Source of the DNA: Candidatus Moraniibacteriota bacterium | GTDB taxonomy: Bacteria; Patescibacteriota; Minisyncoccia; Moranbacterales; GCA-2747515 | NCBI GenBank assembly: GCA_046116545.1 | Contig: CP175956.1 | Location: 577,734 to 641,733 of the forward strand | DNA length: 64,000 bases | Reading direction: 5' to 3' | In this document: piece after piece, positions 1-58,554 of the stretch | Position numbering within the stretch: position 1 is the stretch's first letter | Layout: each line of letters starts with the position of its first letter | Notes under the pieces: model-generated | The model's input: the letters and a program-made list of their open reading frames with translations, nothing else | Databases searched by the model: none | What the model was told of the DNA's origin: nothing | Made by a program: the position numbers and the translations under genes

Positions 1-507
1 CTTATTCTTTTTGCTATAATAATTGGGGGATTTTTTGTATTTTATGAAAAAAATAATTTAAATGATGGAATAGTAGTAGAAGCAGATAACGTGCCGTATC
101 AGGAATATAATAACAAATCACAAATAGCAGATATAAACAAAAGTAATACAAATATTTTAACAATAAATGAATCAGAAGAAATAATAAAATCATTTTTTCT
201 TTTTTTAGAAGAGCAAAATGGACTTCACGGTGATCCAGAATATTATAAAAACCTAGACTTATATATAGATGTTGATAAAAAAACAGATGATAATCTTAAA
301 GGAATGATTAAAATTAGTAACGTTGAACGACATAGTACCCCGTATTTTTTGGCTACAAAAATTGATGATGAATGGAAGTTTATTTTTCAAGGACAAGATA
401 TGCCAAGTTGTGATTTAGTGGATAAATATAACATTCCAACAAAATTATTTTGGCCAAATACAGATAATGCTTGTTTTATAACAAAAACAGAAGTTAGAAG
501 ACATTAA
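1..507 (+). CDS. 5-prime-truncated CDS; membrane-anchored hypothetical protein (ORF-track start 91 is an internal GTG)
   Basis: The frame of ORF 91..507 stays open back to position 1 and encodes a hydrophobic helix (LILFAIIIGGFFVFY) ahead of the soluble domain. No recognisable family. Confidence 0.4.
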   Translation, partial: LILFAIIIGGFFVFYEKNNLNDGIVVEADNVPYQEYNNKSQIADINKSNTNILTINESEEIIKSFFLFLEEQNGLHGDPEYYKNLDLYIDVDKKTDDNLKGMIKISNVERHSTPYFLATKIDDEWKFIFQGQDMPSCDLVDKYNIPTKLFWPNTDNACFITKTEVRRH

Positions 508-611
508 AGGGGGTGTTTTTATGAGTTAGTGAGATGAAATAAAAGCTTTTAGAGTAGATGTTTCACCACAAAAAGTTCGAACGTCATTACCTACTCGGCT
601 CATCGATAAAA

Positions 612-635
612 AGCCCCATTTAATGGGGCTTTTTG
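612..635 (+). terminator. Rho-independent terminator hairpin inside repeat A1 (agcccca-ttta-tggggct + T-run)
   Basis: Perfect 7-bp GC-rich stem followed by TTTTT. Also reads as a hairpin on the minus strand. Confidence 0.7.
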
Positions 636-675
636 AGTACCCACTATGACAGGATCGAACTATTTTGAATTTTGA

Positions 676-704
676 TTGACTTTTTGTATATTTTATGCTA
701 ATAT
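676..704 (+). promoter_or_regulatory. Sigma70-like promoter TTGACT-17nt-TAATAT driving helicase gene 770..3013
   Basis: -35 TTGACT (676-681), 17-nt spacer, -10 TAATAT (699-704). A GGAGG RBS lies at ~759 ahead of ATG 770. Confidence 0.65.
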
Positions 705-769
705 TTAACGTTAGTATTTTTAACAAAAGAATATAAATTTTTCAAGAATTTCATATACGGAGGAGTAAA

Positions 770-3013
770 ATGATTGAATTATATCCAGAATATCAGGCAC
801 CAGCCTTTAAAAAGCTGGTTAAGCATTTTGTAAAGAATGTAGTTGGTCTTATGGTTATGGCAACAGGTCTAGGAAAGACAATTGTTGCTGCATTTTGGGC
901 TAAACGTGAATACAAAAAAGGTCGAAAGGGACTTTTCTTGTGTCACGATACAGGCATTCTTGATCAAGCAATGGATGAGTTTCAAAAAGTATTTGGGAGA
1001 AAAGTATCTCTTAAAACATTTTTTGGAAGTGATAAAGATTGGGATGCTGATAAAGGCGATATCGTTTTTGCAACATTTCAAACTTTACGTGAATCAAATC
1101 CATTTTTTAAAGATGAATTTGATTTTATTATTGTTGATGAGTCACATCATGCTCAGGCAGATACGTACAAAAAAGTGATTGAATATTTCAATCCAAAAAA
1201 ACTCTTAGGTATTACTGCTACTCCCAATAGGGAAGATGAACAGGATATTAGAGAGATATTTGGTGATGAAGTTGTAAACATCCCTTTGGAAGAAGCAATG
1301 GCTAAAGGGTGGTTGTCACAAGTTGAATATCACATTCTCAATGACAATTTAAGTCATTGGAAACTTAAAAAGATTGTTAAAGAGGTGCTTGAAGAGGGAA
1401 GAAGAATCTCTCGGAAACAACTTAATGAAACAATTTTTGTTAAAGCTCGTGATGAAGTAACTGCTCAGACGATTCAGGAATATGCAATTGGTAACAAAAA
1501 GGCGATAATCTTTTGCGAGAGTATCCCTCACGCAGATAACTTTCAAAAGTTTTTACCAAATGCACAAGTGTATCATTCAGAGAAATCAGAAAAGTACAAT
1601 CATAAAGTACTTCAAGATTTCAGAGAAGGTAATATCCAATATATCCTTACAATCAATAAGATGAATGAGGGTATTCATGTTTCTGATGCTGAGATTATCG
1701 TATTTCTTAGATGTACAGATTCAAAAACAATATTTTTTCAACAATTGGGCAGAGGATTAGAGAAACCTTTGAACAAGAAAAAAGTTATCGTTTTAGACTT
1801 TGTCGCAAATTGCGATAGAGTTGCAATGATTAAGGAGTTTTCACGAGAGATTAAGAAACGTGCAGGAAACAACTTTGAACTTACGAAGGATGTCCTTCAC
1901 GTTACTGGTAAAGCTTTTGATTTCATCTTTAATGATGAGCAAATTGATATTTTGGAGGTGATAAGAAAGATAACGACCAAAATTTATGTTTCAGATATTC
2001 CGCACTTACTTGCTGAGTATTCACTAAAGAATGATTTACTAGCAGATCAAGTGATTGCTGGTACGAATAAAAAACTTTGGTGGGTATGCTCTGCGTGTAA
2101 GTATGAATGGCAAGCACCTGGGAATAACCGTGTTACAGGAATCGGTTGCCCAGCATGTTCTGGTAGAGTTGCTACCAGAACCAATAATATTACCGTTACT
2201 CATCCTGAACTTACAAAAGAATATTCATCAGAGAATGAGTTGCTTGCGGATCAAATAAAATCTGGATCAAGTAAGAAGGTTTCGTGGATTTGTTCGAAAT
2301 GTGAACATGAATGGCAAGCAGTAGTGAATAGTCGAACTAGTGGCTGTGGTTGCCCATCTTGTAGAGGGATGGTTGTTACAAAAGCAAACAATCTTGCAGT
2401 TACCCATCCTGATCTTGCAAAGGAATATTCACCAAAAAATAAGTTACCAGCAAATCAGGTAATTGCTGGTACTGGTAAAAAGCTTTGGTGGATTTGTTCG
2501 AAATGCGAACATGAATGGCAGACAACAGGAGATAGTCGTAGTAAGCAGGGAACAGGTTGTTTAGCGTGTTTAAGAAGAATAGCTACAAAAGCAAACAATC
2601 TTGCAGTTACACATCCTGATCTTGCAAAGGAGTATTCATCAAAAAATAAATCATCAGCTGATCATGTAATTTCTGGATCACACGCAAAGCTTTGGTGGAT
2701 TTGTTCGAAATGTGAACATGAATGGCAAGCACCCGTAAGGAGACGTGCGGGAGGATCTGGTTGTCCTGCTTGTGCTAATCAAGTTGTAACAGATAAAAAC
2801 AATCTTACGGTCACCCATCCTAATCTTGCAAAGGAATATTCACCAAAAAATAAGTTACCAGCAAATCAGGTAATTGCTGGCACTGGTAAAAAGCTTTGGT
2901 GGATTTGTTCGAAATGCGAACATGAATGGCAAGCGACTGGAGCAAATCGAAGAACTGGTAGAGGATGTCCAGAATGTAAACGATGCAATAGCAGAAAAAA
3001 GAAGAAATCTTGA
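770..3013 (+). CDS. SF2 DEAD/DEAH-type helicase (type III restriction res-subunit-like ATPase core) with 5 C-terminal tandem zinc-ribbon-like repeats
   Basis: Walker A MATGLGKTIVAAF, DExH IIVDESHH, motif III GITATP and motif VI QQLGRGLE. The C-terminus carries 5 x ~68-aa units W-[WI]-C-S-x-C-E/K-H/Y-E-W-Q ... G-C-P-x-C. Confidence 0.75.
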   Translation: MIELYPEYQAPAFKKLVKHFVKNVVGLMVMATGLGKTIVAAFWAKREYKKGRKGLFLCHDTGILDQAMDEFQKVFGRKVSLKTFFGSDKDWDADKGDIVFATFQTLRESNPFFKDEFDFIIVDESHHAQADTYKKVIEYFNPKKLLGITATPNREDEQDIREIFGDEVVNIPLEEAMAKGWLSQVEYHILNDNLSHWKLKKIVKEVLEEGRRISRKQLNETIFVKARDEVTAQTIQEYAIGNKKAIIFCESIPHADNFQKFLPNAQVYHSEKSEKYNHKVLQDFREGNIQYILTINKMNEGIHVSDAEIIVFLRCTDSKTIFFQQLGRGLEKPLNKKKVIVLDFVANCDRVAMIKEFSREIKKRAGNNFELTKDVLHVTGKAFDFIFNDEQIDILEVIRKITTKIYVSDIPHLLAEYSLKNDLLADQVIAGTNKKLWWVCSACKYEWQAPGNNRVTGIGCPACSGRVATRTNNITVTHPELTKEYSSENELLADQIKSGSSKKVSWICSKCEHEWQAVVNSRTSGCGCPSCRGMVVTKANNLAVTHPDLAKEYSPKNKLPANQVIAGTGKKLWWICSKCEHEWQTTGDSRSKQGTGCLACLRRIATKANNLAVTHPDLAKEYSSKNKSSADHVISGSHAKLWWICSKCEHEWQAPVRRRAGGSGCPACANQVVTDKNNLTVTHPNLAKEYSPKNKLPANQVIAGTGKKLWWICSKCEHEWQATGANRRTGRGCPECKRCNSRKKKKS
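1990..3000 (+). repeat. In-frame tandem repeat array, 5 copies of ~204-207 bp (zinc-ribbon-like module) inside helicase 1
   Basis: THP[DE]LAKEYS...KLWWICSKCEHEWQ...GCPAC repeated. Copies starting ~2405 and ~2816 are almost identical at the DNA level. Confidence 0.85.
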
Positions 3014-3030
3014 AAAGGAGGAACATAAAG

Positions 3031-3068
3031 CCTCACCAATCATAACAATGATTGGTGAGGTTTTTTTT
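3031..3068 (+). terminator. Rho-independent terminator after helicase 1 (cctcaccaat ... attggtgagg + T8)
   Basis: 10-bp perfect stem followed by TTTTTTTT. Preceded by the conserved 3-prime flank AAGGAGGAACATAAA that is also found after helicase 2. Confidence 0.8.
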
Positions 3069-3074
3069 ATTATA

Positions 3075-3230
3075 TTTTAAGTGATTTTGTAGCAATAATG
3101 TAAGCTTTTAGCGAAGAATGAGCAATGCAAAAAGTTCGAACGTCATTACCTACTCGGCTCATCGATAAAGAGCTCCATTTAATGGAGTTTTTGTATGTTC
3201 CGCTATGGTATGGTTGAACTTTGAATTTGA
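3075..3230 (+). repeat. Family-A intergenic repeat, copy A2
   Basis: ...gtaagcttttagcgaagaatgagcaatgcaaaaaGTTCGAACGtcattacctactcggctcatcgataaagagctccatttaatggag...tggttgaactttgaatttgatcac. The internal hairpin is degenerate (agctccattt/aatggagtt). Confidence 0.8.
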
Positions 3231-3611
3231 TCACATTTTTAAATCAGTTGGTTTTACGTTGCAGTTTCTTTTTTTGTAATCTTTTATTAGTTGGGAGATG
3301 TGTTTTTTCATTTTTTTTAAAGTGATAATTTTTTCTTCAATGTCTTCTAAGTTGTTTTCTAGATAAGGCAGTAAGGATTGATGCTTGCACTTTGATGTAT
3401 TTAATTGTGTTGCCATTTCTTTTATCTCATTTAGAGAAAACCCGATTTTTTTTGCTTTCTTAATAAATAAGATAGCCTCTACATCAGCAGTGGAATAAAT
3501 TTTATAATTATTTGTACTATTTATAGTAGGCTTAACTAAATCGAGGTCGTTGTAGTGGCGAAGAGCGTCTTTGGTTATGTTCGTTTTTTGGAGCAAATCT
3601 TTTGTATACAT
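3231..3611 (-). CDS. MerR-family transcriptional regulator (CueR-like)
   Basis: N-terminal MerR HTH (MYTKDLLQKTNITKDALRHYNDLDLVKP...) with a coiled-coil C-terminus. Divergent from a MerR-type promoter with a 19-20 bp spacer. Confidence 0.8.
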   Translation of the reverse strand: MYTKDLLQKTNITKDALRHYNDLDLVKPTINSTNNYKIYSTADVEAILFIKKAKKIGFSLNEIKEMATQLNTSKCKHQSLLPYLENNLEDIEEKIITLKKMKKHISQLIKDYKKRNCNVKPTDLKM

Positions 3612-3617
3612 AAATAC

Positions 3618-3649
3618 TTGACAGTGGGGTTAACCCCATGGTTTATAAT
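3618..3649 (+). promoter_or_regulatory. MerR-type promoter/operator: TTGACA - 19/20-bp spacer containing palindrome TGGGGTTAACCCCA - TATAAT
   Basis: -35 TTGACA 3618-3623 and -10 TATAAT 3644-3649. The over-long spacer with a perfect dyad is the hallmark of MerR/CueR-activated promoters. It sits between the divergent merR-like gene and the HMA/copA genes. Confidence 0.8.
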
Positions 3650-3678
3650 GAAGTTAGTTTAGCATAATTATAAATAAT

Positions 3679-5049
3679 ATGACAGCAAAAAAGAATAAGT
3701 CACAAGAAAGAAAATTTTATATTAGTGGAATGCATTGTGCTTCTTGTAAAGGAATTGTAGAAGATCGTCTTCAAGAACAAAAAGAAGTACAAAGTGCAGA
3801 TGTTGATTTGAAAAAGGGAACAGTTGAAATTGTGTTTGAAAGTAGAGTATTAGAAGTAGATGAAATTACAAAAAAGTTTGAGGATGTAGGGTATTTTTTT
3901 TCAGAGCAACCTTTTAAGAAAAAAGCATATAAAAAGGTTGGGTTGGTCTTGCTTGTGGCTTTGATGGTAAGCTTTGTATTGATACAAAATGAACAGTTCA
4001 TGTTGTTTAGTGGAACAAATGTTGATGAAAATTCATCATTGATGGCATTTGTTGTGTTGGGGATAGTGGCTAGTTTATCTAGTTGTGTAGCCTTGGTGGG
4101 AGGAATCTTATTAGCTATGACAAAAAGTTGGACAAAGACAGTAGGCAAAGAAGCTTCACTTTCAAAAAAAATGGAACCACATATGAAATTTCATATTGGA
4201 AGGTTGGTGGCTTATTTTATAGGTGGTGGAATTTTGGGCTCTATCGGAAGTTTTATAACATTTGATAATCCAAGTGTGTATGCAGTACTTACTGCTTTAG
4301 TTGCAATTATAATGTTGTTGGTAGGATTGCAAATGTTAGGTGTAAAATGGGTTTTGAGAATGTATGTTTTTGCGTATGACAATACACTGAAAAAAATTCA
4401 TATTAATGATAACGTGAAAAATAAATCACCCTTTATTGCAGGTGCGGCAACATTTTTTATTCCTTGTGGATTTACCTTGATTGCACAAGGAGTGGCATTG
4501 ACTGCGGGCAGTTTTATGTCAGGAGCCGCAATTATGTCAGCATTTGCAATTGGAACATTACCAGTATTAATAGGTGTGAGCTTAGGAGGTGCTACTATGA
4601 TTGGCAAAAAAGGATTTGAAGTAATTTTTAATACTATAATAGGAACGATTATAATAATATTTGCAATTTATATATTAAATGGTCAATTTAATGTTTTGGG
4701 ATTACCTAGCTTAAATGATATTAGCTTTGAAAAAACAGGAGCTGTTGAGCAAATTGAAAATAGTAAAACTAACCAAAAGAATACTCAGGAGTTAAATATT
4801 GTAGCAGATGGTTTTGAATATGTAGTTTTGGGATCAAAAATACTGAAGGCAGGCGTGCCAACAACCATTATTGTGGATAATCAGGGTATTGTGGGATGTG
4901 GTGTTTTTATGGCAGCTAGAGGTTTGTTTGAGGGCATGATTGAATTAAAGCCAGGCATTAATAAAAAAGAATTTATACCAGAGGCGGGAACGTATAAATT
5001 AACATGTACTATGGGAATGGTTGCACCAGTTACAATTATTGTTAAATAA
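3679..5049 (+). CDS. Heavy-metal-associated (HMA) domain fused to a polytopic membrane domain and a C-terminal beta-rich (cupredoxin-like?) domain; copper-handling accessory protein
   Basis: N-terminal GMHCASCKG HMA motif, ~8 predicted TM helices (FFIPCGF segment) and a C-terminal soluble domain with a TCTMGM motif. Immediately upstream of copA. Confidence 0.55.
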   Translation: MTAKKNKSQERKFYISGMHCASCKGIVEDRLQEQKEVQSADVDLKKGTVEIVFESRVLEVDEITKKFEDVGYFFSEQPFKKKAYKKVGLVLLVALMVSFVLIQNEQFMLFSGTNVDENSSLMAFVVLGIVASLSSCVALVGGILLAMTKSWTKTVGKEASLSKKMEPHMKFHIGRLVAYFIGGGILGSIGSFITFDNPSVYAVLTALVAIIMLLVGLQMLGVKWVLRMYVFAYDNTLKKIHINDNVKNKSPFIAGAATFFIPCGFTLIAQGVALTAGSFMSGAAIMSAFAIGTLPVLIGVSLGGATMIGKKGFEVIFNTIIGTIIIIFAIYILNGQFNVLGLPSLNDISFEKTGAVEQIENSKTNQKNTQELNIVADGFEYVVLGSKILKAGVPTTIIVDNQGIVGCGVFMAARGLFEGMIELKPGINKKEFIPEAGTYKLTCTMGMVAPVTIIVK

Positions 5050-5056
5050 TAAAATT

Positions 5057-7345
5057 ATGATTACACAAAAATATTATGTTTCAGGAATGCATTGTGCTTC
5101 TTGTAAGGTGAATATAGAAAATGAGTTAAAGAAAAATGAATTAATTGAGGAAGCTTCCGTGAATTATAGTGCTGAAACAATGCAAGTTACATTTAATGAA
5201 AAAGAATTAAGTGATGGTGATATTCAAAAATTAGTTAGAGGCATTGGTGATTATGATACGCGTCCAGATAATGATGGGGGGCGAAGTAAACATCAGAAAG
5301 AGAAAAATGAAAATTTAAGTAAGATGAAGCGAAATTTAATATATGTATCAATTGCTGCAGCACCTTTTATCATGAGTATGGCATTCATGCTAATAAATGG
5401 AATATTTGATTTAAATATTTTGGGTGGTTTTTCAACAAGGTTAGATAGTATAATGCTTTTTGGAATATCAGTTGTGAGTATAGCTCAAATTGTATTAGCT
5501 GGATTTGTTCTGTTTGTTGGCGGAAGATTATTTTTTGTTAATGCATTTGCAGCGATAAAAAAAGGTTCAAGTAATATGGATACATTGGTAGTGCTAGGTG
5601 CAACTACTGCTTGGATTTATTCTACGATTGTTACGATATTTTTTGCAGGCAGTGAACAGGAGTTTGTTGTGTTTTTTGAGGCATCTGTGTTTATTATATT
5701 TTTTATTTTAGTAGGTAGATATTTTGAAGAAAAAGCTAGGACAGCGACACAAAAAAGTGTGGAAAGTTTATATGCAATACAATCAAAAGTAGCTGTTGTT
5801 TTGCGGGATTTGAAAAAGGTAGAGATTGCAATTAAGAACGTTGTAAAAAAAGACAATGTTGTCGTTATGCCGGGACAAAAAATTCCTGTAGATGGAGTTA
5901 TAATTGAAGGTAAAACAGCAATTGATGAGTCAATGATCTCTGGAGAAGCTTTTCCGGTGGATAAAAAAGAAGGTGATGCTGTCATAGGTGGCACACTTAA
6001 TACAACGGGTTATATTGTTTTTGAAGCAACTAAGGTTGGTAAGGATACAATGCTTTCACAAATTATTAAAATGGTTGAAGAAGCTCAGGGGAGTAGTGTG
6101 CCAATTCAAAAACTTGCAGACAAAATTTCAAGTATTTTTGTACCCATTGTAATAATTATTGCTGTAGGCACATTTATCTTTTGGTATTTTGTTGCGCCAA
6201 ATATGAACTTGATAGAGGCTTCACAAGCATTGCCATTTGCGGTATATGTGACAATTTCTGTTTTGGTCATAGCATGTCCATGTGCGCTTGGACTTGCAAC
6301 GCCAACTGCGATAATTGTATCGGTAGGACATGCAGCCAGAAAGGGAATTTTAATTAAAAATGCACAAATTATTGAAAATGCATTCAAGATTAAAAATATA
6401 GTTTTTGATAAAACAGGAACAATTACGCAAGGTAAACCAGCTGTAACAGATTCTGTTTATTTTGACGATGAAAAAAAATACGCAAATTATGTGTATGCTT
6501 TGGAAAATAAAACAGAGCATCCTGTGGCTAAGGCGATAATAAATTTTTTGGAAGTTAGTGAAAATAATTTAAGTGAAGAAAAGGTTGAGGATTTTCATAA
6601 TTTAGAAGGCGTAGGCGTGAGAGGTATTATTGACGGAGAAAAAGTCATGATGGTGAAAATGAGTTCTGTTAAAGAATATGCAAAACTGACTTTGGAACAA
6701 AAAAATGTTACAAACAGTTTTCTTGAAAAAAAATATACAATATCAGTGTTTATAGTTGGAGATTCAATAAAGGCAATTTTTGCAGTAACAGATCCAATAA
6801 AAGAAACTAGTTACAAGGCAATTAGTGCATTGAAAGAAAAAGGAATTAAAACAACTATGGTAACAGGTGATAATGAGAATATTGCACAGTGGGTTGCTTC
6901 TAGTGTTGGAATAGATAATGTAGTAAGTGATGCAGTGCCGCTAGACAAAGATAGAATCGTGCAAAAAATTAAAAAGGAATCAAAAGAAGGTGAATTAATT
7001 GCAGTTGCGGGTGATGGTGTGAATGATGCACCAGCGCTGGCTAGAGCTGATATTGGAATTGCGATGGGTACAGGTTCAGACGTTGCGATTGAATCAGGAG
7101 ATATTGTAATTGTTAAGGGATCATTGCAAAAGATTGTTGATGCAATAAATTTATCTAAAAAAACAATGCACATAATAAAACAAAATCTTTTTTGGGCGTT
7201 TGGATATAATGTTCTAGCTATTCCGATTGCAATGGGGTTCTTGTATCCATTTTTTGGTGTAGTTTTGTCACCGACTATTGCAAGCGCTGCAATGGCACTT
7301 AGTTCCATAAGCGTTGTTTTAAATAGTTTGCGTTTGAGGCGATAA
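5057..7345 (+). CDS. copA: Copper-translocating P1B-type ATPase
   Basis: N-terminal HMA GMHCASCK, TM CPC motif (ACPCALGLATP), phosphorylation site DKTGTIT and GDGVNDAPAL. The start moves to ATG 5057 (after the upstream stop 5047-5049) rather than ORF-track 5021. Confidence 0.9.
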   Translation: MITQKYYVSGMHCASCKVNIENELKKNELIEEASVNYSAETMQVTFNEKELSDGDIQKLVRGIGDYDTRPDNDGGRSKHQKEKNENLSKMKRNLIYVSIAAAPFIMSMAFMLINGIFDLNILGGFSTRLDSIMLFGISVVSIAQIVLAGFVLFVGGRLFFVNAFAAIKKGSSNMDTLVVLGATTAWIYSTIVTIFFAGSEQEFVVFFEASVFIIFFILVGRYFEEKARTATQKSVESLYAIQSKVAVVLRDLKKVEIAIKNVVKKDNVVVMPGQKIPVDGVIIEGKTAIDESMISGEAFPVDKKEGDAVIGGTLNTTGYIVFEATKVGKDTMLSQIIKMVEEAQGSSVPIQKLADKISSIFVPIVIIIAVGTFIFWYFVAPNMNLIEASQALPFAVYVTISVLVIACPCALGLATPTAIIVSVGHAARKGILIKNAQIIENAFKIKNIVFDKTGTITQGKPAVTDSVYFDDEKKYANYVYALENKTEHPVAKAIINFLEVSENNLSEEKVEDFHNLEGVGVRGIIDGEKVMMVKMSSVKEYAKLTLEQKNVTNSFLEKKYTISVFIVGDSIKAIFAVTDPIKETSYKAISALKEKGIKTTMVTGDNENIAQWVASSVGIDNVVSDAVPLDKDRIVQKIKKESKEGELIAVAGDGVNDAPALARADIGIAMGTGSDVAIESGDIVIVKGSLQKIVDAINLSKKTMHIIKQNLFWAFGYNVLAIPIAMGFLYPFFGVVLSPTIASAAMALSSISVVLNSLRLRR

Positions 7346-7423
7346 ATTTTAAATTATGTAAATTTAAGTTTTTTCTGTTAACAATATTGCATATGTGTTA
7401 ATGACATCATTTACTATTATTTT

Positions 7424-7600
7424 GTAAAACTAAAGGTTTTCAGTGAAGAACTAGTGGTATAAAAAGTTCGAATGTCAGTAACTATTCAGCTCATCGATAA
7501 AAAGCCCCATTTAAGGGGGCTTTTTGAGTACCCACTATGCAAGGATCAAACTATTTTGTATTTCGATTGACTTTTTATGTATTTTATGCTAATATTTAAT
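7424..7600 (+). repeat. Family-A intergenic repeat, copy A3 (full length with outward promoter)
   Basis: ~90% identical to A1 across the GTTCGAAT...terminator hairpin (aagcccca-ttta-agggggct)...GGATCAAACT...TTGACT...TAATAT module. Confidence 0.85.
7567..7595 (+). promoter_or_regulatory. Sigma70-like promoter TTGACT-17nt-TAATAT driving helicase gene 7663..9618
   Basis: Same promoter module as 676-704. Downstream RBS GAAGGAGA at 7651-7658. Confidence 0.65.
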
Positions 7601-7662
7601 GTTTGTTGACTTAATAATTGAAGATAATAAAATACGTTTCTCATAAAAGGGAAGGAGATAAT

Positions 7663-9618
7663 ATGAGTATTTCTAATTTTTGTAAATCTGTTGCAAAACT
7701 TCTTGAAACTCATTTAGAGTTTTCAAAAAGTAGTTTGCGTAGTGTACAGGTAGGCGGTTTTGAAAAGCTTATCAATTTTATCAATTCTGGTAAATTGAGT
7801 GGCTTAGTAAAACATCCTACAGGTGCAGGCAAAACTCGTTTTTTTTGCGAAGTTTTGTCAGCACTTAATATGCCTTCGCTCATTCTTGTACCAAGAACGA
7901 ACCTTGTAGCTGATACAAAGGAATCACTTGTTGGTAACGAGATGAGAGATGTAGAAGGTGTGGGTTATTTGGAAGAAGATATATTTCTTTTGAGTGATGA
8001 ATTTGGAAAAGCAGCCATTGCTTTAAAAAGCATTTTTGATAATATCATTAAAATGCAGGATTTTGGAGGAGTTGTCATCATGTCATATCAGTCGTTTTTG
8101 AGTATTTCAAAGCATGATATGTATACTCTTGATGATTTTATGAAACTCATCAAGGTAGTCATATCTGATGAAGCTCATAGAGGACTTGGAGATGAAACGC
8201 AAGAGGTTATCAAGCAATACAATGATGACATCATTGGAGATGGTGTTGATCGAGTGCATTTGCACATGACAGCAACTCCACAATTGGGTCATAAAAATGT
8301 ATGTGACATATATGATATTGAAGTGATAGATTGGGTACGTGTACAAGATTCTGTTGAAGATGGAATCCTTATCATGCCACAATTTCGTCATTTTGGTACA
8401 GCCACATACAAAACTACTGATGATATTAAATTTTCTGACAAGTTCTTTGAAAGTCTTGCAGAAAGTGAGAAGTTCGTCATGGATAATGGCCAATCTGTAA
8501 CTGAGGCAGCTATAGATGAATACATTATGTTAAAAGAAAAGCATGATGGATATTTACCTGGAGTTGTATTTTGTGGAACTATTGCTCATGCAGAGGCCAC
8601 TAAACAATATTTACTGTCACGAGGACTAAGGGCAATTCGCTCTACAAGTTCTAATAAACAGTATGATTGTGGCGTAAATCCTGACAGAGCAAGAGAGATG
8701 TTTCACAGCGAAGAAATCGATCTTGTAGTTACAGTAAGTAAGGTTGGAGAAGGTTGGGATGTGCCAACACTTCGCTGTGCCATTTGGCTTAGGCCAGTAG
8801 GTTCATCTGCAGTATATCTTCAAGGTACAGGTCGTGTGATGCGAACACTTCTTGATAATACCGTACATGCATTTAAGGATCGTTCAAATACTTATGTGAT
8901 TGAACCACTTTGGGAACTTGTACGTGTAAGTAGTGTAACAGAAGACAAAAAAGAAGATGAACATGAAAAAGAAATCGTAGAGAATGATTTAGCTGATACT
9001 GATTCTGATGCACAAACAACTGTATATCCGTCAAGAAATGGATATGAACATTTTGTTACAGCAGATGAATTTGATGTTGAAGCGCTACGTTCAATTGTTG
9101 GAGGAGATGCGCGTATTCATATGGATATTGATTTTCATAATGATGAGCATCTTCGAATCCTGATTGGTAGTGTAGACAAGCTTATTGTTAAAGGTAAGGG
9201 TGTGAATTTAGTAAAAGTGACTTTCATTAATACTGAACAAGATTGGAAAGTAACAGGTCGTGTTATTGGCAGAGTTTTGTGGAATAACTCAAGTCCAAAA
9301 ATTTATGATGCAGAAAAACTGGCTAAACAGTTATGGCCAGAGGAAGTTGAGAATTTGTTACCAAAGGAAAGATTTAATCCTAAGGATGATAATCACCTTC
9401 GAATACTAATAGGAAATGTAGATAATCTTATTGTTAATGGTAAGGGTGTGAGTTTAGTAAAAGCAACTTTCATTAATGCTGAACGAGGTTGGAAAGTAAC
9501 AGGTGGTGTTATTGGTAATGCTTTGTGGAAAAAGAAAAGTCCAAATATAGCTGATGCAGAAAAACTGGCTAAACAACTTTGGCTTGAAGAGGCTGAGAAG
9601 TTGTTGGACAAAAAATAA
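7663..9618 (+). CDS. SF2 DEAH-type helicase (ResIII-like core) with a C-terminal duplicated ~82-aa domain
   Basis: Walker A HPTGAGKTRF, DEAH VISDEAHR, motif III MTATPQ and motif VI QGTGRVMR. The start is moved to ATG 7663 (strong RBS) from ORF-track 7618. The C-terminus has 2 x (HLRILIG.VD.LIV.GKGV.LVK.TFIN.E..WKVTG.VIG..LW...SP.I.DAEKLAKQLW). Confidence 0.75.
   Translation: MSISNFCKSVAKLLETHLEFSKSSLRSVQVGGFEKLINFINSGKLSGLVKHPTGAGKTRFFCEVLSALNMPSLILVPRTNLVADTKESLVGNEMRDVEGVGYLEEDIFLLSDEFGKAAIALKSIFDNIIKMQDFGGVVIMSYQSFLSISKHDMYTLDDFMKLIKVVISDEAHRGLGDETQEVIKQYNDDIIGDGVDRVHLHMTATPQLGHKNVCDIYDIEVIDWVRVQDSVEDGILIMPQFRHFGTATYKTTDDIKFSDKFFESLAESEKFVMDNGQSVTEAAIDEYIMLKEKHDGYLPGVVFCGTIAHAEATKQYLLSRGLRAIRSTSSNKQYDCGVNPDRAREMFHSEEIDLVVTVSKVGEGWDVPTLRCAIWLRPVGSSAVYLQGTGRVMRTLLDNTVHAFKDRSNTYVIEPLWELVRVSSVTEDKKEDEHEKEIVENDLADTDSDAQTTVYPSRNGYEHFVTADEFDVEALRSIVGGDARIHMDIDFHNDEHLRILIGSVDKLIVKGKGVNLVKVTFINTEQDWKVTGRVIGRVLWNNSSPKIYDAEKLAKQLWPEEVENLLPKERFNPKDDNHLRILIGNVDNLIVNGKGVSLVKATFINAERGWKVTGGVIGNALWKKKSPNIADAEKLAKQLWLEEAEKLLDKK
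9139..9618 (+). repeat. In-frame direct duplication (2 x ~246 bp) forming the C-terminus of helicase 2
   Basis: The protein repeats begin DDEHLRILIGSVDKLIV... and DDNHLRILIGNVDNLIV.... Confidence 0.8.
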
Positions 9619-9636
9619 AGGAGGAACATAAACTCA

Positions 9637-9670
9637 AAAGCCATTACAGGAATAACTGTAATGGCTTTTT
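9637..9670 (+). terminator. Rho-independent terminator after helicase 2 (agccattacag ... ctgtaatggct + T5)
   Basis: 11-bp stem + TTTTT. Preceded by the conserved AAGGAGGAACATAAA 3-prime flank. Confidence 0.8.
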
Positions 9671-9671
9671 C

Positions 9672-9830
9672 ATATTTTGAGTGATCTTGGAGTAATAATG
9701 TAGGCTTTTAGGGAAGAATGGGCAATACAAAAAGTTCGAACGTCATTACCTAGTCGGCTCATCGATAAACAGCCCCATTAAATGGGGCTTTTTGAGTATC
9801 CACTATGATAGGATCGAACTATTGTGATAG
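9672..9830 (+). repeat. Family-A intergenic repeat, copy A4
   Basis: ...gtaggcttttagggaagaatgggcaatacaaaaaGTTCGAACGtcattacctagtcggctcatcgataaacagccccattaaatggggctttttgagtatccactatgataGGATCGAACTattgtg. Confidence 0.85.
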
Positions 9831-9877
9831 TATTATGACTGAATGATATATAAATAAATTATAAAAATATAGTATAT

Positions 9878-10660
9878 ATGAACAATTATTTAGAATTTGC
9901 AAAAAGTGTTGCGGAAGGTGCATCTGAAATAGCATTGAAATATTTTGGTTTTGATGTTGCAAATACTTGGAAAAGTGATAATACACCGTTAACAAAAGCT
10001 GATACAGAAATTAACTCGTATGTAATCAAAAGAATATCAGAAAAATATCCTGAACATAGCGTGGTAGGTGAAGAGGAGAGTAAACTAGTAAACGATTCAA
10101 AATATATATGGGTGTGTGATCCGATAGATGGAACAATCCCATATTCTTGTGGACTGCCTATGTGGACTTTTTCACTTGCTTTGGTTGATGTTAAAACAGG
10201 TCAGCCAATTGTTGGTATTGTGAATGATGTTATGATGAAAAATATGTATTGGGCACATAAGAATGGAGGAGCTTTTCGGAATGGTGAAAAAATTCAAGTT
10301 TCAAATAAAGACAGTCTCAAAAAGACTTATTTAAATGTTGATGGAACAGGTAAAGATATGAATTTTTCTGGTATAAATACAATAAATTCTCTACAAAACA
10401 ATGGAGCAAAAGTTATGAAATTGTTATCAATTATATATGGTGGTGTGCAGGTATCTAACGGTAAATTTGTAGGTACTGTATTTTTTCATCCATATGCTCA
10501 TGATGTTGCTGCATTAAAAATTATAATTGAAGAAGCTGGAGGTAAGGTTACAGATTTAAATGGTGATGAACGCAGATATGATAAAGATGGGATTGGATGT
10601 GTAATTTCAAATGGAACTTTGCATAATGAAATACTATCGTGTGTAAGTAAGTTGAATTAA
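9878..10660 (+). CDS. Inositol monophosphatase-family phosphatase
   Basis: IMPase signature WVCDPIDGT (W-x-x-D-P-[IL]-D-G-T) and an upstream metal-binding EEE segment (VVGEEES). Confidence 0.75.
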   Translation: MNNYLEFAKSVAEGASEIALKYFGFDVANTWKSDNTPLTKADTEINSYVIKRISEKYPEHSVVGEEESKLVNDSKYIWVCDPIDGTIPYSCGLPMWTFSLALVDVKTGQPIVGIVNDVMMKNMYWAHKNGGAFRNGEKIQVSNKDSLKKTYLNVDGTGKDMNFSGINTINSLQNNGAKVMKLLSIIYGGVQVSNGKFVGTVFFHPYAHDVAALKIIIEEAGGKVTDLNGDERRYDKDGIGCVISNGTLHNEILSCVSKLN

Positions 10661-10668
10661 ATTTTTGA

Positions 10669-10697
10669 TTGACTTTTTATATGTTTTATATTAGAGT
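10669..10697 (+). promoter_or_regulatory. Promoter-module fragment homologous to the A-repeat promoter (TTGACT-17-TAGAGT)
   Basis: ttgattgactttttatatgttttatattagag aligns with ttgattgactttttgtatattttatgctaatat of A1/A3. Confidence 0.5.
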
Positions 10698-10702
10698 ATA
10701 GT

Positions 10703-10779
10703 GTCCATTAGAGGACAGCAACTAACTAGCGGAATGCTAGTTCTTTAACAAAACTGGCGGAATGCCAAAGGAGAAAGTC
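10703..10779 (+). promoter_or_regulatory. Structured 5-prime leader: three short hairpins, two with identical GGAAU pentaloops (ctagcGGAATgctag; tggcGGAATgcca), ending at the RBS
   Basis: gtgtcc-atta-gaggacagc, aactagc-ggaat-gctagtt and tggc-ggaat-gcca run directly into AAGGAGAAAGTC-ATG. Confidence 0.4.
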
Positions 10780-11949
10780 ATGGAACACAAAACTGAAACT
10801 CAGATTGCTAAATTAATTATGGATTTTCCAATTGTAGGTCTAATTCGATTTGCACAACGATCTGGGAATGGTAAATTGCCAAAAACAGATGTTCATATTC
10901 AGCGAGCTGATCCAGGAACTATGCACTTACAAGCAAGTAATTGCAGATATAAAGATCGTTCATATATTGGCGGAAAAAATAATCTACGGGGTACCAGGAC
11001 TGAATATATGATTGCTATTGATTGTGATGGCAAGCCAATGGAATATTTGGAATGGGATAGGGGTGATTTTGAAAAAATGTCAAAGGACATATTTGAAATA
11101 GCATCTCCAGAAAAAGTAGATTATTTGGTGTGGGCAAGTGCTATAAATTGGTATACGCCTTCATCTGAAGAGCGAGAAGAAAAAACAGGTGGAAACCTGT
11201 TTGATCAGTTTGTTGATGCGGAAGTTGATATTATTATTTTTCAACAACCCAAAAATCAGACTTTTGCCGAACTGATAAAGATAGCTGATGAACAGAAAGA
11301 GAGGCGTGAAAATGCATATAAATTTCTTCCTGATGTAATGCCTGAATTTACAGGCATTTACAAAGGACTTAAAGATGGTGGTGAAATCCATGCATTTTGT
11401 TCTGGAGGTGGCTTAAGAGTTGTATATATGCGTCGCGATGGTAGTGATGATAATATGGCATACGGTGAACATCCACACATTGAAGATGCTTTAAATCATC
11501 TTGAAGAAGACTTTTTGGCTGGTAGCAGAAAGTATAAAGATGTGTACGGAGGTTTGTACCCACACTATCTTACTGGTGAATCTATTGCTACTAGTAATTT
11601 GGATTCTTGGATTTTACAGGGACGTACCTTTGATTGTTTTCAAGTGAGAGATGAAATTCATTTTGTATTAAATGGTTGTGGAGAATCTAAAATGCCAAAG
11701 GACGTGTATAATAAGGTAATAGGAACATTTGAACCCGTGCAATGGAAGCATCGAGGTTTTATATTTTTATCAAAACCTTCAAGTATTGGTACCTGCATGG
11801 GTGTCAGTGTTAACGTGATTGCATCGCCAATAAATGGTAAAGGCCTTAATCCACATCGGTATAATTTTGTAAAGTTGGGAAAAAGTAAAACCTTTTGGGA
11901 AGCTGTAAAAAAAGCGTTTGAAGCACCAGAGACTGAAGTTCAACCATAA
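10780..11949 (+). CDS. Hypothetical protein (390 aa)
   Basis: Long ORF with good RBS (AAGGAG, 6-nt spacing) at the second ATG, used instead of ORF-track 10762. No recognisable motifs. Confidence 0.5.
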   Translation: MEHKTETQIAKLIMDFPIVGLIRFAQRSGNGKLPKTDVHIQRADPGTMHLQASNCRYKDRSYIGGKNNLRGTRTEYMIAIDCDGKPMEYLEWDRGDFEKMSKDIFEIASPEKVDYLVWASAINWYTPSSEEREEKTGGNLFDQFVDAEVDIIIFQQPKNQTFAELIKIADEQKERRENAYKFLPDVMPEFTGIYKGLKDGGEIHAFCSGGGLRVVYMRRDGSDDNMAYGEHPHIEDALNHLEEDFLAGSRKYKDVYGGLYPHYLTGESIATSNLDSWILQGRTFDCFQVRDEIHFVLNGCGESKMPKDVYNKVIGTFEPVQWKHRGFIFLSKPSSIGTCMGVSVNVIASPINGKGLNPHRYNFVKLGKSKTFWEAVKKAFEAPETEVQP

Positions 11950-11962
11950 ATTAAACTATGTT

Positions 11963-12004
11963 AATACCACCATTCGATTTAATATCGAGTGGTGGTATTT
12001 TTTA
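11963..12004 (+). terminator. Rho-independent terminator (ataccacc ... ggtggtat + T6)
   Basis: 8-bp stem with a long loop, then TTTTTTATT. Confidence 0.55.
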
Positions 12005-12088
12005 TTGTAAAACAAAGACTTTTAGTGAAGAATTAACATCACAAAAAGTTCGAACGGTAGTACCTACTATAGATAGGATCGAACTAAG
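12005..12088 (+). repeat. Family-A repeat, short copy A5 (both ends present, internal hairpin deleted)
   Basis: tgtaaaacaaagacttttagtgaagaatt...aaaaGTTCGAACGgtagtacctactatagataGGATCGAACTaag. The two inverted termini lie only ~25 bp apart. Confidence 0.75.
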
Positions 12089-12178
12089 ATAGACAAAAGA
12101 TGTAGTTTGATATAGAATAAATAGTCAGTTCATTAAATAATTATTTTATTACAAATTCAATTAAAGGGGTATCGAATT

Positions 12179-12406
12179 ATGATTTCAGTTGGTAATATTG
12201 AAAGATTTATTGATAATCATCCAGAACTTAATCTCGATAAAGATAAGATTATGAGACAGGCTGATGAATTAGCTCGTCAAGAGGTCTTGTCTGGCGGAGT
12301 AGTTGGAGATTTACTTGGCAATTTGGACGCATTATTTTTTCGTGAATTTCATTTTGACATAGAGCATCTTAAGGTTGCTGCAAAAGATGTAATAAATATG
12401 GAGTAG
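12179..12406 (+). CDS. Hypothetical small protein (75 aa)
   Basis: ORF with RBS-like AAAGGGG upstream. No family recognised. Confidence 0.35.
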   Translation: MISVGNIERFIDNHPELNLDKDKIMRQADELARQEVLSGGVVGDLLGNLDALFFREFHFDIEHLKVAAKDVINME

Positions 12407-12426
12407 TTATATCTAATAAATTTGAA

Positions 12427-13227
12427 GTGAGGGAGATGAAAATGAGAGAATCACAACGATATTCTAAAAAGCTTATTATTATAATTACGGTTGTTATTAT
12501 TTGTGGAATTGTAAGCACTCTGTGGATGATGTTTGGCAAGGATAGTATATCTTTTTCTGAGCATGATGCACGTGAGCAAATTGCAAAACATATTCCAACA
12601 ACCAAGATTGATACAATTGTTGGTATGGAATATTCAATTACCATTGATCAGGTAAGTGTTGATTTTGTTGAGGGTGATCGAATTGGTATTGAAGCAAGTG
12701 GCATTGTTGATAGTAGTAAGGGGGGTGTTAATTTTTCTGTTGTAACTGTAGGTGTTCCAGATCTTAGAAATAATGCTTTTTATTTTAGACCTAACTCCTT
12801 TGAGTTTACTGAATTTGTGTTTTCAAAAAAGGCTCAAAAAAGCAGTCGTGTTCTAGGTATTGTGGCAGCTAATACTATTAAAAAGTATACTGGTGATCTT
12901 TTTAAGGGAACTGATATTAAGATTGATAAAAAGGCAATAACGGAAAAGATTCAGGCTAAGATTAAAATAATGACTCATAGTGCTATTGTGGGATATCTAA
13001 ATAAAAATCCAATCAAAAAACTTGAAACTGGCAAAGAGAAAATTATAGGTGCAGCTATCAAAAAGATTAGCGTAGATGGCGATAATATCACCATTCACTT
13101 TTCTTTTTGGAATTTAGCAAAATATGTTTTAGTGTTTATATTGGCTTTTATTGCAGCTATTGGACTTTTAGTTTCTGCTCCATGGTGGGCAGCTGACCTT
13201 GCATTTCTTGCGGCTATTTTAAGTTAA
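12427..13227 (+). CDS. Membrane-anchored hypothetical protein (N- and C-terminal TM helices)
   Basis: N-terminal helix LIIIITVVIICGIVSTLWMMF and C-terminal helix VLVFILAFIAAIGLLV. Confidence 0.45.
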   Translation: MREMKMRESQRYSKKLIIIITVVIICGIVSTLWMMFGKDSISFSEHDAREQIAKHIPTTKIDTIVGMEYSITIDQVSVDFVEGDRIGIEASGIVDSSKGGVNFSVVTVGVPDLRNNAFYFRPNSFEFTEFVFSKKAQKSSRVLGIVAANTIKKYTGDLFKGTDIKIDKKAITEKIQAKIKIMTHSAIVGYLNKNPIKKLETGKEKIIGAAIKKISVDGDNITIHFSFWNLAKYVLVFILAFIAAIGLLVSAPWWAADLAFLAAILS

Positions 13228-13328
13228 TCTCCTGAATATTACTGACTAAACAGGACTTGAATAAATTCAAGTCCTGTTTTACTTTTTATAACTAATAATA
13301 AATACTTTTAAATAGTTATTTTCATTAT

Positions 13329-13364
13329 AAAAAGTTTGAACGTTATTACCTACTCGGCGCTAGA
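13329..13364 (+). repeat. Family-A repeat fragment A6 (left end only)
   Basis: aaaaGTTTGAACGttattacctactcggcgc matches the first 35 bp of the A element. Confidence 0.6.
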
Positions 13365-13590: not shown

Positions 13591-14094
13591 TTGTTTGCTG
13601 TTGCTATTGCGTGTTTTTGTATTTACTTTGAGACAAAAAAGAATATTTGGTTTTTTATATCAGCAGTATTTCTATTTTTCAGTATGGATGATGCTATTTA
13701 TTTTCATGAGCGATTTAGTGGATATTTGGTCAATAATGTAGATTTTTTTATTATTTTTCCTACATATATTTGGGCATTTATTTATTCACCTATACTTATT
13801 TTTGCTATAGGAATGTTAGTGTATTTACTTTGGCAAGAGGTTTCAAATAAAGATAAAAAAATAATAAGTATAATATTAATAATGCTGATAATGGCGATTT
13901 GCTTAGATCTTATTGATGGGGTGATTCAAAAAGATGAAACAATAGTATTGTGTATTAATGAATTTTGTAATAAATCTGCGATACATCTAATGAGATTGGT
14001 AGAAGAAGTTCTGGAAGTTTTAGCTATTGGACTATTGGGATATATTATTTTAAAAAATAATTGTGTGAAATACTATTTAGAAACTTCTAAATAG
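13591..14094 (+). CDS. Polytopic membrane protein, hypothetical (TTG start in ORF track; true start uncertain)
   Basis: Several hydrophobic helices. No in-frame ATG upstream. Confidence 0.4.
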   Translation: MFAVAIACFCIYFETKKNIWFFISAVFLFFSMDDAIYFHERFSGYLVNNVDFFIIFPTYIWAFIYSPILIFAIGMLVYLLWQEVSNKDKKIISIILIMLIMAICLDLIDGVIQKDETIVLCINEFCNKSAIHLMRLVEEVLEVLAIGLLGYIILKNNCVKYYLETSK

Positions 14095-14140
14095 TATCTA
14101 ATGTGGTACAATTATATTGTAATAAGTAAGACTTTCGATT

Positions 14141-14776: not shown

Positions 14777-14802
14777 GATGCAATACATTTATATGGGTTA
14801 AA

Positions 14803-14836
14803 AAAGTCTCCAGTCTTTTGGGGGACTTTTTTTATA
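14803..14836 (+). terminator. Rho-independent terminator (aagtctcc ... ggggactt + T7)
   Basis: Stem with one mismatch followed by TTTTTTT. Confidence 0.6.
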
Positions 14837-14933
14837 GGCTAAATAATATACTAATTAAATTAACAGTAGTTCCATATTCTCCTTGTGGTAGAATGTAGGT
14901 ATCATTGAATAAGTATATTTAAACAATAAATTT

Positions 14934-58529: not shown

Positions 58530-58554
58530 ATCTCAGATGTCATTTTTGATTTTT
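58519..58554 (+). terminator. Rho-independent terminator spanning the RT stop codon (atgacatctga-atc-tcagatgtcat + TTTTGATTTTT)
   Basis: Perfect 11-bp stem. Its left arm supplies the spurious ORF-track ATG 58519 for recQ. Confidence 0.75.

Follow-up and report, generated by a model that had tools for sequence, protein, structure and literature searches.

Gene modules and repeats at the start of the window

The window analyzed here is a 64-kb stretch of DNA from a Candidatus Moraniibacteriota bacterium, and our subject is an intergenic repeat that separates unrelated gene modules near its beginning. The window is bacterial chromosome, encoding EF-P, LepA, a ClpB-type ATPase, PBP2, MreB/MreC and RecQ at a G+C content of 30-36%. 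An earlier note, made from the sequence alone, had placed six copies of the repeat here and had taken the genes between them for unrelated modules of an accessory region. A profile search confirmed the six copies, and the modules are as described.

A full copy consists of a left arm (L), the spacer TCGAT, a hairpin and a right arm, and this layout is the same in all four full copies. The other two copies are partial. The junctions A1 to A6, each formed around one copy, and the genes between and beside them are listed here; "island" refers to the region from an upstream tRNA gene to ~15.7 kb of the window, as explained below.

1..507, plus strand: 3′ part of the first island gene, for a 181-amino-acid (aa) predicted membrane protein; the gene starts 39 nt upstream of the window and corresponds to 2843-3388 of contig L008
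531..769, plus strand: junction A1, with an upstream stretch (531-568), L (569-602, ending in GCTCA), the spacer TCGAT, the terminator hairpin (608-634), the right arm (635-661), a promoter (676-704) and a leader to the Shine-Dalgarno (SD) site, before an ATG at 770
770..3064, plus strand: helicase 1 cassette (ResIII/DEAD/Helicase_C plus five DUF4379 zinc fingers), with its own terminator at 3027-3064
3090..3220, plus strand: junction A2, with L (3128-3161), terminator (3167-3192) and a degenerate right arm to 3220
3231..7345: cassette of merR (3231-3611, minus strand), a gene for an HMA-DsbD_2 membrane protein (3679-5049) and a P-type ATPase gene of the CopA type (5021-7345)
7423..7662, plus strand: junction A3, with L (7460-7493), terminator (7499-7525), right arm (7526-7552) and promoter (7567-7595)
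7618..9669, plus strand: helicase 2 cassette (ResIII/Helicase_C), with its own terminator at 9636-9669
9690..9823, plus strand: junction A4, with L (9728-9761), terminator (9767-9793) and right arm (9794-9820), and without a consensus promoter
9878..11999, plus strand: cassette of an inositol monophosphatase-family (IMPase) gene (9878-10660) and a gene for a 395-aa protein without a family assignment (10762-11949), with its own terminator at 11963-11999
12011..12085, plus strand: junction A5, a collapsed copy in which the distal right arm (12069-12085) directly follows proximal L (12042-12068)
12179..13279, plus strand: cassette of two genes (75 and 266 aa) without family assignment, with its own terminator at 13248-13279
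13322..13361, plus strand: junction A6, an L arm only (13328-13361, 29 of 34 positions matching the consensus), without terminator or right arm
13591..15644, plus strand: three genes (167, 211 and 236 aa) with weak or no assignment, between the last repeat and the core genes
16369-17238, plus strand: Exo_endo_phos gene, right flank, core genome
18017-18625, plus strand: TrmB-type methyltransferase gene, right flank, core genome

The two helicases are only 21% identical. The core of helicase 1 resembles the Type IV restriction/PbeA helicase, and a homologue (58% aa identity) with an L arm after it occurs in L002, another metagenome-assembled genome (MAG). Labels of this form denote the loci or contigs of related genomes that we compared; the window's own genome was covered by the 64 kb and its flanks. 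Similarly, a merR homologue (64% aa identity) lies behind an L arm in L014. The 236-aa protein has a weak likeness to HD phosphohydrolases, and the group of three genes to which it belongs is probably the distal part of the island.

Both helicase genes are internally repetitive. The five DUF4379 units of helicase 1 are in tandem (2015-2929), with a DNA period of 204 nt, and helicase 2 has an internal duplication of 246 nt (9140-9605). In short-read assemblies of the window's strain these repeats are collapsed, which leads to a call of 568 aa in L035 and to a deletion in L017.

Structure and conservation of the repeat

A scan of the window located all six copies (four full, two partial) at the places given by the earlier note, every one on the plus strand; none would be expected by chance. 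With a profile made from the four full copies, these are recovered at 531-664, 3090-3222, 7423-7555 and 9690-9823 (E 1e-40 to 1e-44), and the partial copies at 12011-12068 and 13322-13360. The profile has no further significant forward-strand match in the window, leaving the other 50 kb empty of copies. A 25-nt core pattern with at most three mismatches occurs five times in the window, compared with 0.00 expected, and a self-repeat search with MAFFT alignment also found the shared block at six places. Pairwise identity of the four full copies is 74-95% over 93 nt.

The left arm is CAAAAAGTTCGAACGTCATTACCTACTCGGCTCA, 34 nt long with GCTCA at its 3′ end. The right arm, GAGTACCCACTATGACAGGATCGAACT, is a partial mirror of L, in which a direct copy of distal L is followed by an inverted copy of proximal L. 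Both L and the inverted right arm have the form GTTCGA-N17-(G)CTCA, and the tRNA has GTTCGA-N12-GCTCA. The 5-nt spacer after GCTCA is TCGAT throughout the window copies, but differs between genomes. The element's ends had been given as AAAAAGTTCGAACG (left) and GGATCGAACT (right), and both are correct; the proposed terminal inverted repeats, AGTTCGA/TCGAACT with a partial extension, are also present.

The hairpin, AAAAAGCCCCAT-TTA-ATGGGGCTTTTT, is a G+C-rich stem-loop with a T run after it and an A run before it, and qualifies as an intrinsic (Rho-independent) terminator. Given that the A run precedes the stem and the T run follows it, the terminator should act in both directions. This hairpin, too, had been predicted. 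It is 97% paired in 13 copies from several genomes, with two compensatory changes.

A TG-extended promoter, TTGACT-17-TAATAT, occurs exactly where it had been noticed, after A1 (676-704) and after A3 (7567-7595). A2 lacks a promoter, and its next gene, merR, is convergent. The conserved unit is longer than the ~100-170 bp given earlier, and the repeated element measures 100-220 bp. About 45 nt upstream of the left arm are also kept. Conservation in A1 and A3 further includes the promoter and a leader of ~65 nt to the SD site; the leader of A3 reaches a probable ATG at 7663. A copy in another species matches window 568-785 at 84% identity. Ahead of the repeat, upstream genes have their own terminators (3027-3064, 9636-9669, 11963-11999 and 13248-13279). 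In A5, which had rightly been seen as collapsed, the terminator was deleted between direct 8-nt copies, TACCTACT and TATCCACT. A6 is a solitary left end, also as described before.

L has a mean identity of ~92% over 26 uninterrupted copies on at least 11 contigs, and the right arm drifts. The FNR-like proteins encoded on those contigs are 52-81% identical to that of the window's genome. When the DNA is folded as a single strand, A1 and A4 form long hairpins (z -5 to -6). We rejected a conserved long hairpin as a general feature, because RNAalifold applied to 13 full copies retains the terminator only, and the outer arms are without compensatory change. Small G+C-rich hairpin insertions (19, 42 or ~29 nt) are found within L arms or at their ends. 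Those in L021 (12675-12693) and L028 (12007-12025, 16695-16713 and 15972-16013), which measure 19 or 42 nt, are at one fixed point of L, between GTTCGAACGTC and ATTACCTAC. Another, in L002 (2175-2203), has a CTCGG duplication on its flanks.

We also discarded two further ideas about the repeat. L, or L with its upstream 45 nt, does not align significantly as a decayed copy of tRNA-Gly (local alignment p ~0.3), and ARAGORN and Rfam detected no tRNA inside the window. Avoidance of a restriction site does not account for the motif either, as TTCGAA occurs at the expected frequency in the window.

The chain begins at a tRNA-Gly gene

At its positions 2882-5339, the metagenome contig L008 has exactly the sequence of window 1-2458 (100% identity), and it reaches 2.9 kb further upstream. 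On this contig the gene for tRNA-Gly(TCC) is at 2692-2765; it begins 190 nt and ends 117 nt before window position 1. The tRNA is preceded by DUF4446, DsbA-like and FNR-like genes, and is followed by a terminator (AAAAACCGCTT..AAGCGGTTTTT), a TGTGATATAAT promoter and then the 181-aa gene.

The same context was sought in relatives by searching with the FNR-like protein, and the surroundings of eight homologues were compared. The order IF2, DUF4446, DsbA-like, FNR-like, tRNA-Gly(TCC) is kept throughout. While these upstream genes are common to all, nothing is conserved in the gene content 3′ of the tRNA, where sporadic cassettes alone recur. A chain of repeats follows the FNR-like gene and tRNA-Gly in L001, L012, L021, L024, L026/27 and L028. 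L001, a MAG contig, has at least six copies in a chain, spaced 750-1,500 bp apart with one or two genes between them. In L022/23 the tRNA is followed by a plain terminator and there are no repeats. Finally, L030-32 correspond to an empty site: the NAD kinase gene comes directly after the tRNA, without any repeat, and at 2.3 kb from the tRNA are Exo_endo_phos and TrmB genes orthologous to window 16375-17229 and 18023-18619 (56% and 55% aa identity, respectively).

Given the shared upstream order and the empty site in L030-32, the window from the tRNA to ~15.7 kb is an inserted island. It has the features of a tRNA-seeded island, namely an adjoining full-length tRNA, conserved flanks and an empty site in a relative. 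Moreover, the chain starts at tRNA-Gly(TCC) in every array-carrying genome examined, with its junctions after GCTCA, and this fits the earlier suggestion that the repeat is the footprint or target of a site-specific recombinase.

An 86-aa gene with a GIY-YIG nuclease domain lies between the FNR-like gene and tRNA-Gly in three array-carrying genomes (L021 10710-10970, L026 8360-8620 and L027 8203-8463). The window's genome does not have it.

Genome and metagenome collections were scanned with one L pattern. Among bacteria and archaea represented by one genome per species, the degenerate pattern is found only in Candidatus Moraniibacteriota MAGs, apart from one chance match. Exact-protein look-ups gave no match. 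There are no matches in viral contigs, and no megablast match in phage or plasmid records, and we rejected a phage or plasmid origin on these grounds. The earlier note had conceded that the copies might be local duplications confined to this locus, or a generic terminator. Copies do occur in other loci and genomes, and the repeat is no generic terminator.

Boundaries of the units

Comparing the joints across genomes, we found that two kinds of left partner meet two kinds of right partner. The left one is the tRNA 3′ end (...CCCGCTCA) in some joints and L (...CGGCTCA) in others. On the right is either the terminator described above, with or without right arm and promoter, or a second type of terminator, AAAAACCGCT...AGCGGTTTTT, with the TGTGATATAAT promoter. 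Each left partner was seen with each right partner, and the change from one to the other invariably comes directly after (G)CTCA. In L021, the 26 nt after the GCTCA of the tRNA match the window copies at 25 positions.

A noncoding element of ~160 nt, which we call Z, occurs at L028 10832-11006 and at L026 8830-9005 and 9672-9850. It is located after the tRNA in L028, while L026 has a diverged copy after the tRNA and another after an L arm. Z contains a terminator, a right arm (GGAAGGGAATCGAATT), a G+C-richer part of ~95 nt with three hairpins and a copy of the tRNA end. The three hairpins retain their pairing between diverged copies. The right arm is an inverted copy of the tRNA's TTCGATTCCCTTC, and the 3′ end is an exact 17-nt copy of the tRNA 3′ end, TTCCCTTCACCCGCTCA.

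Homology between the Z copies starts at GCTCA regardless of whether the left neighbor is the tRNA or L. Therefore, the mobile unit extends from one GCTCA to the next, comprising terminator, right arm, further sequence and left arm, and is not the palindrome. In addition, since the right arm of Z mirrors the tRNA end that Z itself carries, the arms match within a cassette and not across a joint. This match of arm types is the arrangement expected if both ends of a unit meet in a circular form. Z could be a small RNA gene that travels as a cassette. In Rfam 15, neither Z nor L nor the repeat has a match at the gathering threshold or at E up to 1, and only the tRNA is matched; we accordingly dropped the idea that the repeat belongs to a known RNA family.

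A further trace of the tRNA is found in L024, where an exact 56-nt copy of tRNA-Gly (positions 20-75) lies at 10805-10861, head-to-tail after the complete tRNA and with nothing between. The junction reads ...CCCGCTCA|TCATTATG..., and its extra 3 nt (TCA) mean that simple microhomology at GCTCA does not explain it. The partial tRNA may be an att-type trace.

Cassette shuffling between relatives

The cassettes of the co-oriented array are unrelated, and relatives differ both in their content and in their order. L026 and L028 are 89% identical in their core DNA and have the cassettes Z1, 127-aa, 136-aa and 289-aa in common, but these occupy other positions in another order. The shared blocks start at a GCTCA junction: L026 9844 corresponds to L028 16025, and L026 10497 to L028 12026. 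A cassette with a Fic-domain gene is 88.6% identical between L001 and L028 over 1.76 kb, although the core DNA is ~70% identical. That the cassette exceeds the core in identity indicates horizontal cassette transfer between lineages. The earlier proposal to look for cassette polymorphism thus gave a divided answer, as it was found between related genomes, but not between contigs of the same strain.

In the stretch from the joint to the Fic-domain gene, both L001 (5190-5295) and L028 (16760-16865) have a conserved, dense cluster of iteron- or operator-like motifs, AGGTATAA and TATACCTATA.

A second repeat family near the end of the window

Another intergenic repeat, (A)GTTGGCCCTATGGGAGGAAGTTCGAAC, is present in four copies on the plus strand, at 60732-60753, 61222-61243, 62722-62743 and 63795-63816, compared with 0 expected. 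Each copy is just after a gene end or terminator, and the family has the core RAGTTCGAAC, as does L. It is absent from the other loci compared. The sequence GTTCGAAC occurs in the window seven times, compared with 0.5 expected, and always inside one of the two repeat families. The second family may represent another cassette array, running off the end of the window.

Just before this family, window 57498-60723 encodes a 343-aa retron-type reverse transcriptase (Pfam RVT_1; NCBIfam retron St85 at 131 bits, below the cut-off), and a RecQ-family helicase gene overlaps its end and continues 3′. The two are possibly a defense module. The window also has two very large open reading frames (ORFs), at 25422-28604 (1060 aa, no Pfam match) and 38495-45142 (2215 aa).

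Proposed organization of the island

We propose that the six repeats are the joints of an additive cassette island that grew by recombination directly 3′ of tRNA-Gly(TCC) in a lineage of Candidatus Moraniibacteriota, and we give this proposal about an even chance of being correct. From 5′ to 3′, a cassette would consist of a terminator hairpin, usually a right arm, often an extended -10 promoter with a leader of ~65 nt, one to three genes, often a terminator of their own, the conserved ~45-nt stretch and L. What appears as one repeat would then be a composite joint, where L, closing one cassette, adjoins the terminator and right arm that open the following one. Recombination at GCTCA or directly 3′ of it would insert, excise and re-order the cassettes, a mechanism that we infer from sequence comparison. 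The agent would most likely be a recombinase encoded elsewhere in the genome that recognizes GTTCGA...GCTCA, a T-loop-like motif common to L, the tRNA 3′ end and, in inverted form, the right arm.

The head of a cassette would also have a role in expression. Its terminator would stop transcription arriving from the tRNA or the previous cassette, and the promoter and leader would restart it, so that each captured gene would be an insulated transcription unit.

We favor a site-specific enzyme acting in trans because the chain is anchored at a tRNA, because Z with its exact tRNA-end copy was inserted after two partners that are not homologous, and because L is strictly conserved. More tentatively, Moraniibacteriota, and perhaps other bacteria of the candidate phyla radiation (CPR), might have a dedicated gene-capture system that has not yet been described, although we regard this as unlikely. 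The 3′ end of tRNA-Gly(TCC) would be the primary insertion site, equivalent to attI, and the 34-nt arm that mimics a T-loop and ends in GCTCA would be the cassette site, equivalent to attC. Every cassette would carry its own terminator, promoter and leader. The recombinase, again encoded elsewhere, would move the cassettes and read GTTCGA...GCTCA, possibly on folded single-stranded DNA; such a target is conceivable because the arms are mirrored and hairpin insertions are tolerated at a fixed point of L. If so, the second repeat family with its RAGTTCGAAC core suggests that the genome has more than one such platform.

Several results weigh against the cassette-island proposal. The first concerns the enzyme. 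The earlier note had suggested looking for a recombinase, but none was found in any array, in the upstream 2.9 kb or among the scanned window ORFs of at least 100 aa, in which the retron-type reverse transcriptase was the single find. Pfam revealed no recombinase in the ORFs of window 1-19.6 kb and the upstream 2.9 kb, and neither the window nor the L001, L021, L024, L026 and L028 arrays revealed an integrase. Second, ordinary homologous recombination between the repeats would give the same pattern, as breakpoints can be placed no more finely than L plus terminator, these sequences being common to all joints. Third, contigs of the same strain from several samples reveal no gain or loss of cassettes. 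Contigs with identical IMPase or FNR-like proteins belong to the same strain (99.98-100%) and break or collapse only at the repeats; turnover is thus not visible at the strain level. Fourth, the outer helix between left and right arms is 81% paired with no compensatory changes (13 full, L-type copies). Fifth, L is not demonstrably derived from a tRNA. Its best ungapped match to the tRNA 3′ end is 16/24 (p ~0.06), or p 0.03 given the GTTCGA anchor, which is a weak lead. Finally, L003 and L004 carry solitary copies of L plus terminator, without right arm, after core genes, and so L is not strictly a feature of arrays.

We had also considered that a protein encoded in the arrays might itself be the recombinase. 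The candidates of similar size (395, 389 and 397 aa) proved to be unrelated to one another, and for the 395-aa protein searches of PDB, Pfam, PHROG and NCBIfam gave no match.

Alternative explanations

Given that no recombinase was found and breakpoints cannot be placed within the shared joint, RecA-dependent homologous recombination is a serious rival, even if we think it unlikely. In this scenario the joints are linkers, and a dedicated recombinase is not needed. The direct repeats of 100-220 bp, with a nearly invariant 34-nt block, would allow cassettes to loop out as circles and re-enter at other joints, and to be swapped after natural transformation. The position at a tRNA would be a historical accident inherited by descent. 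The repeats are indeed direct, co-oriented and 74-95% identical within the genome, and the spacer, uniform in the window yet different between genomes, fits homogenization within a genome. The deletion in A5 took place between short direct repeats, shuffled cassettes break somewhere within the shared joint, and natural competence is possible in Patescibacteria (PMC10633639). However, homologous recombination leaves unexplained how Z, with its exact 17-nt tRNA copy, comes to stand behind two non-homologous partners that have only GCTCA in common. It also does not explain the 56-nt partial tRNA of L024, the right arms that mirror the left arm at the other end of the same cassette, or the fact that L is kept far better than the rest of the repeat.

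A second alternative, which we consider quite improbable, is that the repeat is an expression device only. It would be a module of terminator, insulator, promoter and leader, with cassettes varying by unrelated means. L and the right arm would be binding sites for a regulator or nucleoid protein recognizing RAGTTCGAAC, kept because they insulate accessory genes. Consistent with this idea, there are double terminators ahead of joints and promoters after them, and the leader is conserved up to the SD site before unrelated genes. L plus terminator forms the 3′ end of core genes in L003 and L004, the second family with the RAGTTCGAAC core follows gene ends at 60.7-63.8 kb, and the sevenfold occurrence of GTTCGAAC is confined to these repeats. 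By contrast, an expression device would explain neither the anchoring at a tRNA, the empty site and the changed cassette order between relatives, nor the fixed GCTCA junction and the tRNA-end copy in Z. Furthermore, L and the right arm are situated between terminators and promoter, where little transcription is expected.

The earlier note had leaned towards a miniature inverted-repeat transposable element (MITE). In this reading a 95-nt palindrome would have landed repeatedly between genes of the region through a transposase encoded elsewhere, which we now regard as very improbable. The terminal inverted repeats AGTTCGA...TCGAACT, extending to CAAAA/TTTTG, are suggestive, as are the fold of A1 and A4 (z -5 to -6), the typical MITE size and the likeness of A5 to an internally deleted copy. 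However, no copy has a target-site duplication, and the flanks CAAAA| and |ATTTTG are complementary rather than direct. The six copies are within one 13-kb array, with none dispersed over the other 50 kb, and many copies lack the right arm yet have a near-perfect left arm; the only solitary copies are also without right arm. An identical terminator and right arm can have the tRNA 3′ end in front of them in place of the left arm, and the arms do not covary. Genomes differ by whole cassettes, and the moving unit is a cassette bounded in the middle of the repeat. Nor was a related insertion sequence (IS) with these ends found. Regulatory MITEs (Correia/CREE of Neisseria, RUP, ERIC) and REP/BIME/REPIN elements resemble our repeat in being small intergenic palindromes that supply terminators or promoters. 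Those families, though, are genome-wide, with tens to thousands of copies, the MITEs having target-site duplications and the REPINs a RAYT partner. Our repeat, unlike them, forms one array at a tRNA, has no duplication, conserves the left arm alone and is not dispersed within the 64 kb.

One transposase gene does adjoin a copy. In L013, a 434-aa protein with a helix-turn-helix and an rve-like (DDE) domain is encoded at 319-1623, directly behind a joint of L, terminator and short right arm. We rejected it as the source of the repeat, as the rve match is sub-threshold and the IS is passenger-like, a mere neighbor of the copy. It is probably an IS that landed in an array.

A classical integron array, or a cluster of attC sites lacking an integrase (CALIN) with the repeats as attC, can be given almost no credence: co-oriented unrelated cassettes and interposed imperfect palindromes of attC-like length, homogeneous within the genome as in sedentary chromosomal integrons, would fit, but the attC core (5′ RYYYAAC ... 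GTTRRRY 3′) is absent from both strands (best matches have 1-2 mismatches in the wrong order), the element reads 5′-AGTTCGA...TCGAACT-3′ on both strands and so has GTT on the 5′ and AAC on the 3′ side, the boundary is in mid-palindrome, after GCTCA between left arm and terminator, instead of at the 3′ end (G/TT of R′), the cassettes have promoters and terminators of their own, no IntI or tyrosine recombinase is nearby (window 1-19.6 kb plus 2.9 kb upstream), and the anchor is a tRNA, not attI.

Comparison with known systems

The integron-like or REP/BIME-like character suggested by the earlier note thus holds only as an analogy, in the absence of an attC core and intI. As in integrons and CALINs, unrelated and mostly single-gene cassettes are co-oriented, the joint is a composite of two cassettes' ends, the imperfect palindromes (~90-100 nt) are homogeneous within a genome and the order varies between relatives. 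The differences, beyond those given above, include the lack of a Pc promoter.

Prochlorococcus tycheposon islands are tRNA-seeded additive genomic islands built by integrative elements (10.1101/2020.12.28.424599). Like islands of the tycheposon type, the present island starts at a full-length tRNA gene and grows away from it, with conserved flanks and variable content. Repeated att-type sequences lie between insertions, the cargo is defense-like and niche-related, most units lack an integrase, and partial tRNA copies occur in relatives, one of 56 nt in L024 and others of 17 nt in L026 and L028, where they form the end of Z. In contrast to islands of that type, the repeated site in the window is no partial tRNA but a 34-nt sequence of its own, not significantly similar to the tRNA end (p 0.06-0.3). 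The units have one to three genes behind a standard head of terminator, promoter and leader, none of ~8 arrays revealed an integrase-bearing element, and the host is a CPR bacterium.

T4-type phages have, in their hyperplastic regions, a promoter-early stem-loop (PeSL) of ~50 bp that combines a stem-loop terminator with a sigma70-type promoter. PeSL modules bracket small variable genes, and it has been proposed that these are shuffled by recombination between the repeats. Our repeat is similarly a short terminator-then-promoter module around variable genes. However, PeSLs have no extra conserved arms, whereas the repeat in the window is on a bacterial chromosome, measures 130-240 bp, has a conserved 34-nt arm and belongs to an array tied to a tRNA.

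The pdif modules of Acinetobacter plasmids and IMEX elements lack a recombinase and have short sites at which host Xer recombinases act in trans. The cassettes likewise lack their own recombinase and have short conserved boundary sites. Unlike in pdif/IMEX modules, there is no recognizable dif-like 11-6-11 site in L or in the junction, the sites are direct and not alternately inverted, and the location is chromosomal, beside a tRNA.

Full-text literature searches returned no description of such arrays in Patescibacteria or Moranbacteria. The array resembles both of its closest counterparts, tycheposon-type islands and integrons or CALINs, in architecture and dynamics, and is set apart from them by a site consisting of a non-tRNA 34-nt arm plus terminator, by self-expressing cassettes and by having no recognizable recombinase.

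Implications

CPR bacteria have tiny genomes and few recognized mobile elements, and no integrons were reported for them in the literature searched. How they acquire accessory and defense genes is poorly understood. The array offers a concrete site for studying this question, with a defined GCTCA junction, an empty-site control and natural cassette shuffling. It also raises the same question as integrons do, namely how unrelated genes or ORFs gain common cassette ends. If homologous recombination alone is responsible, the array would be a bacterial counterpart of the PeSL shuffling in phages. Should there be a dedicated recombinase, the array would amount to a new gene-capture platform on a level with integrons, and its self-expressing cassettes would be attractive for engineering.

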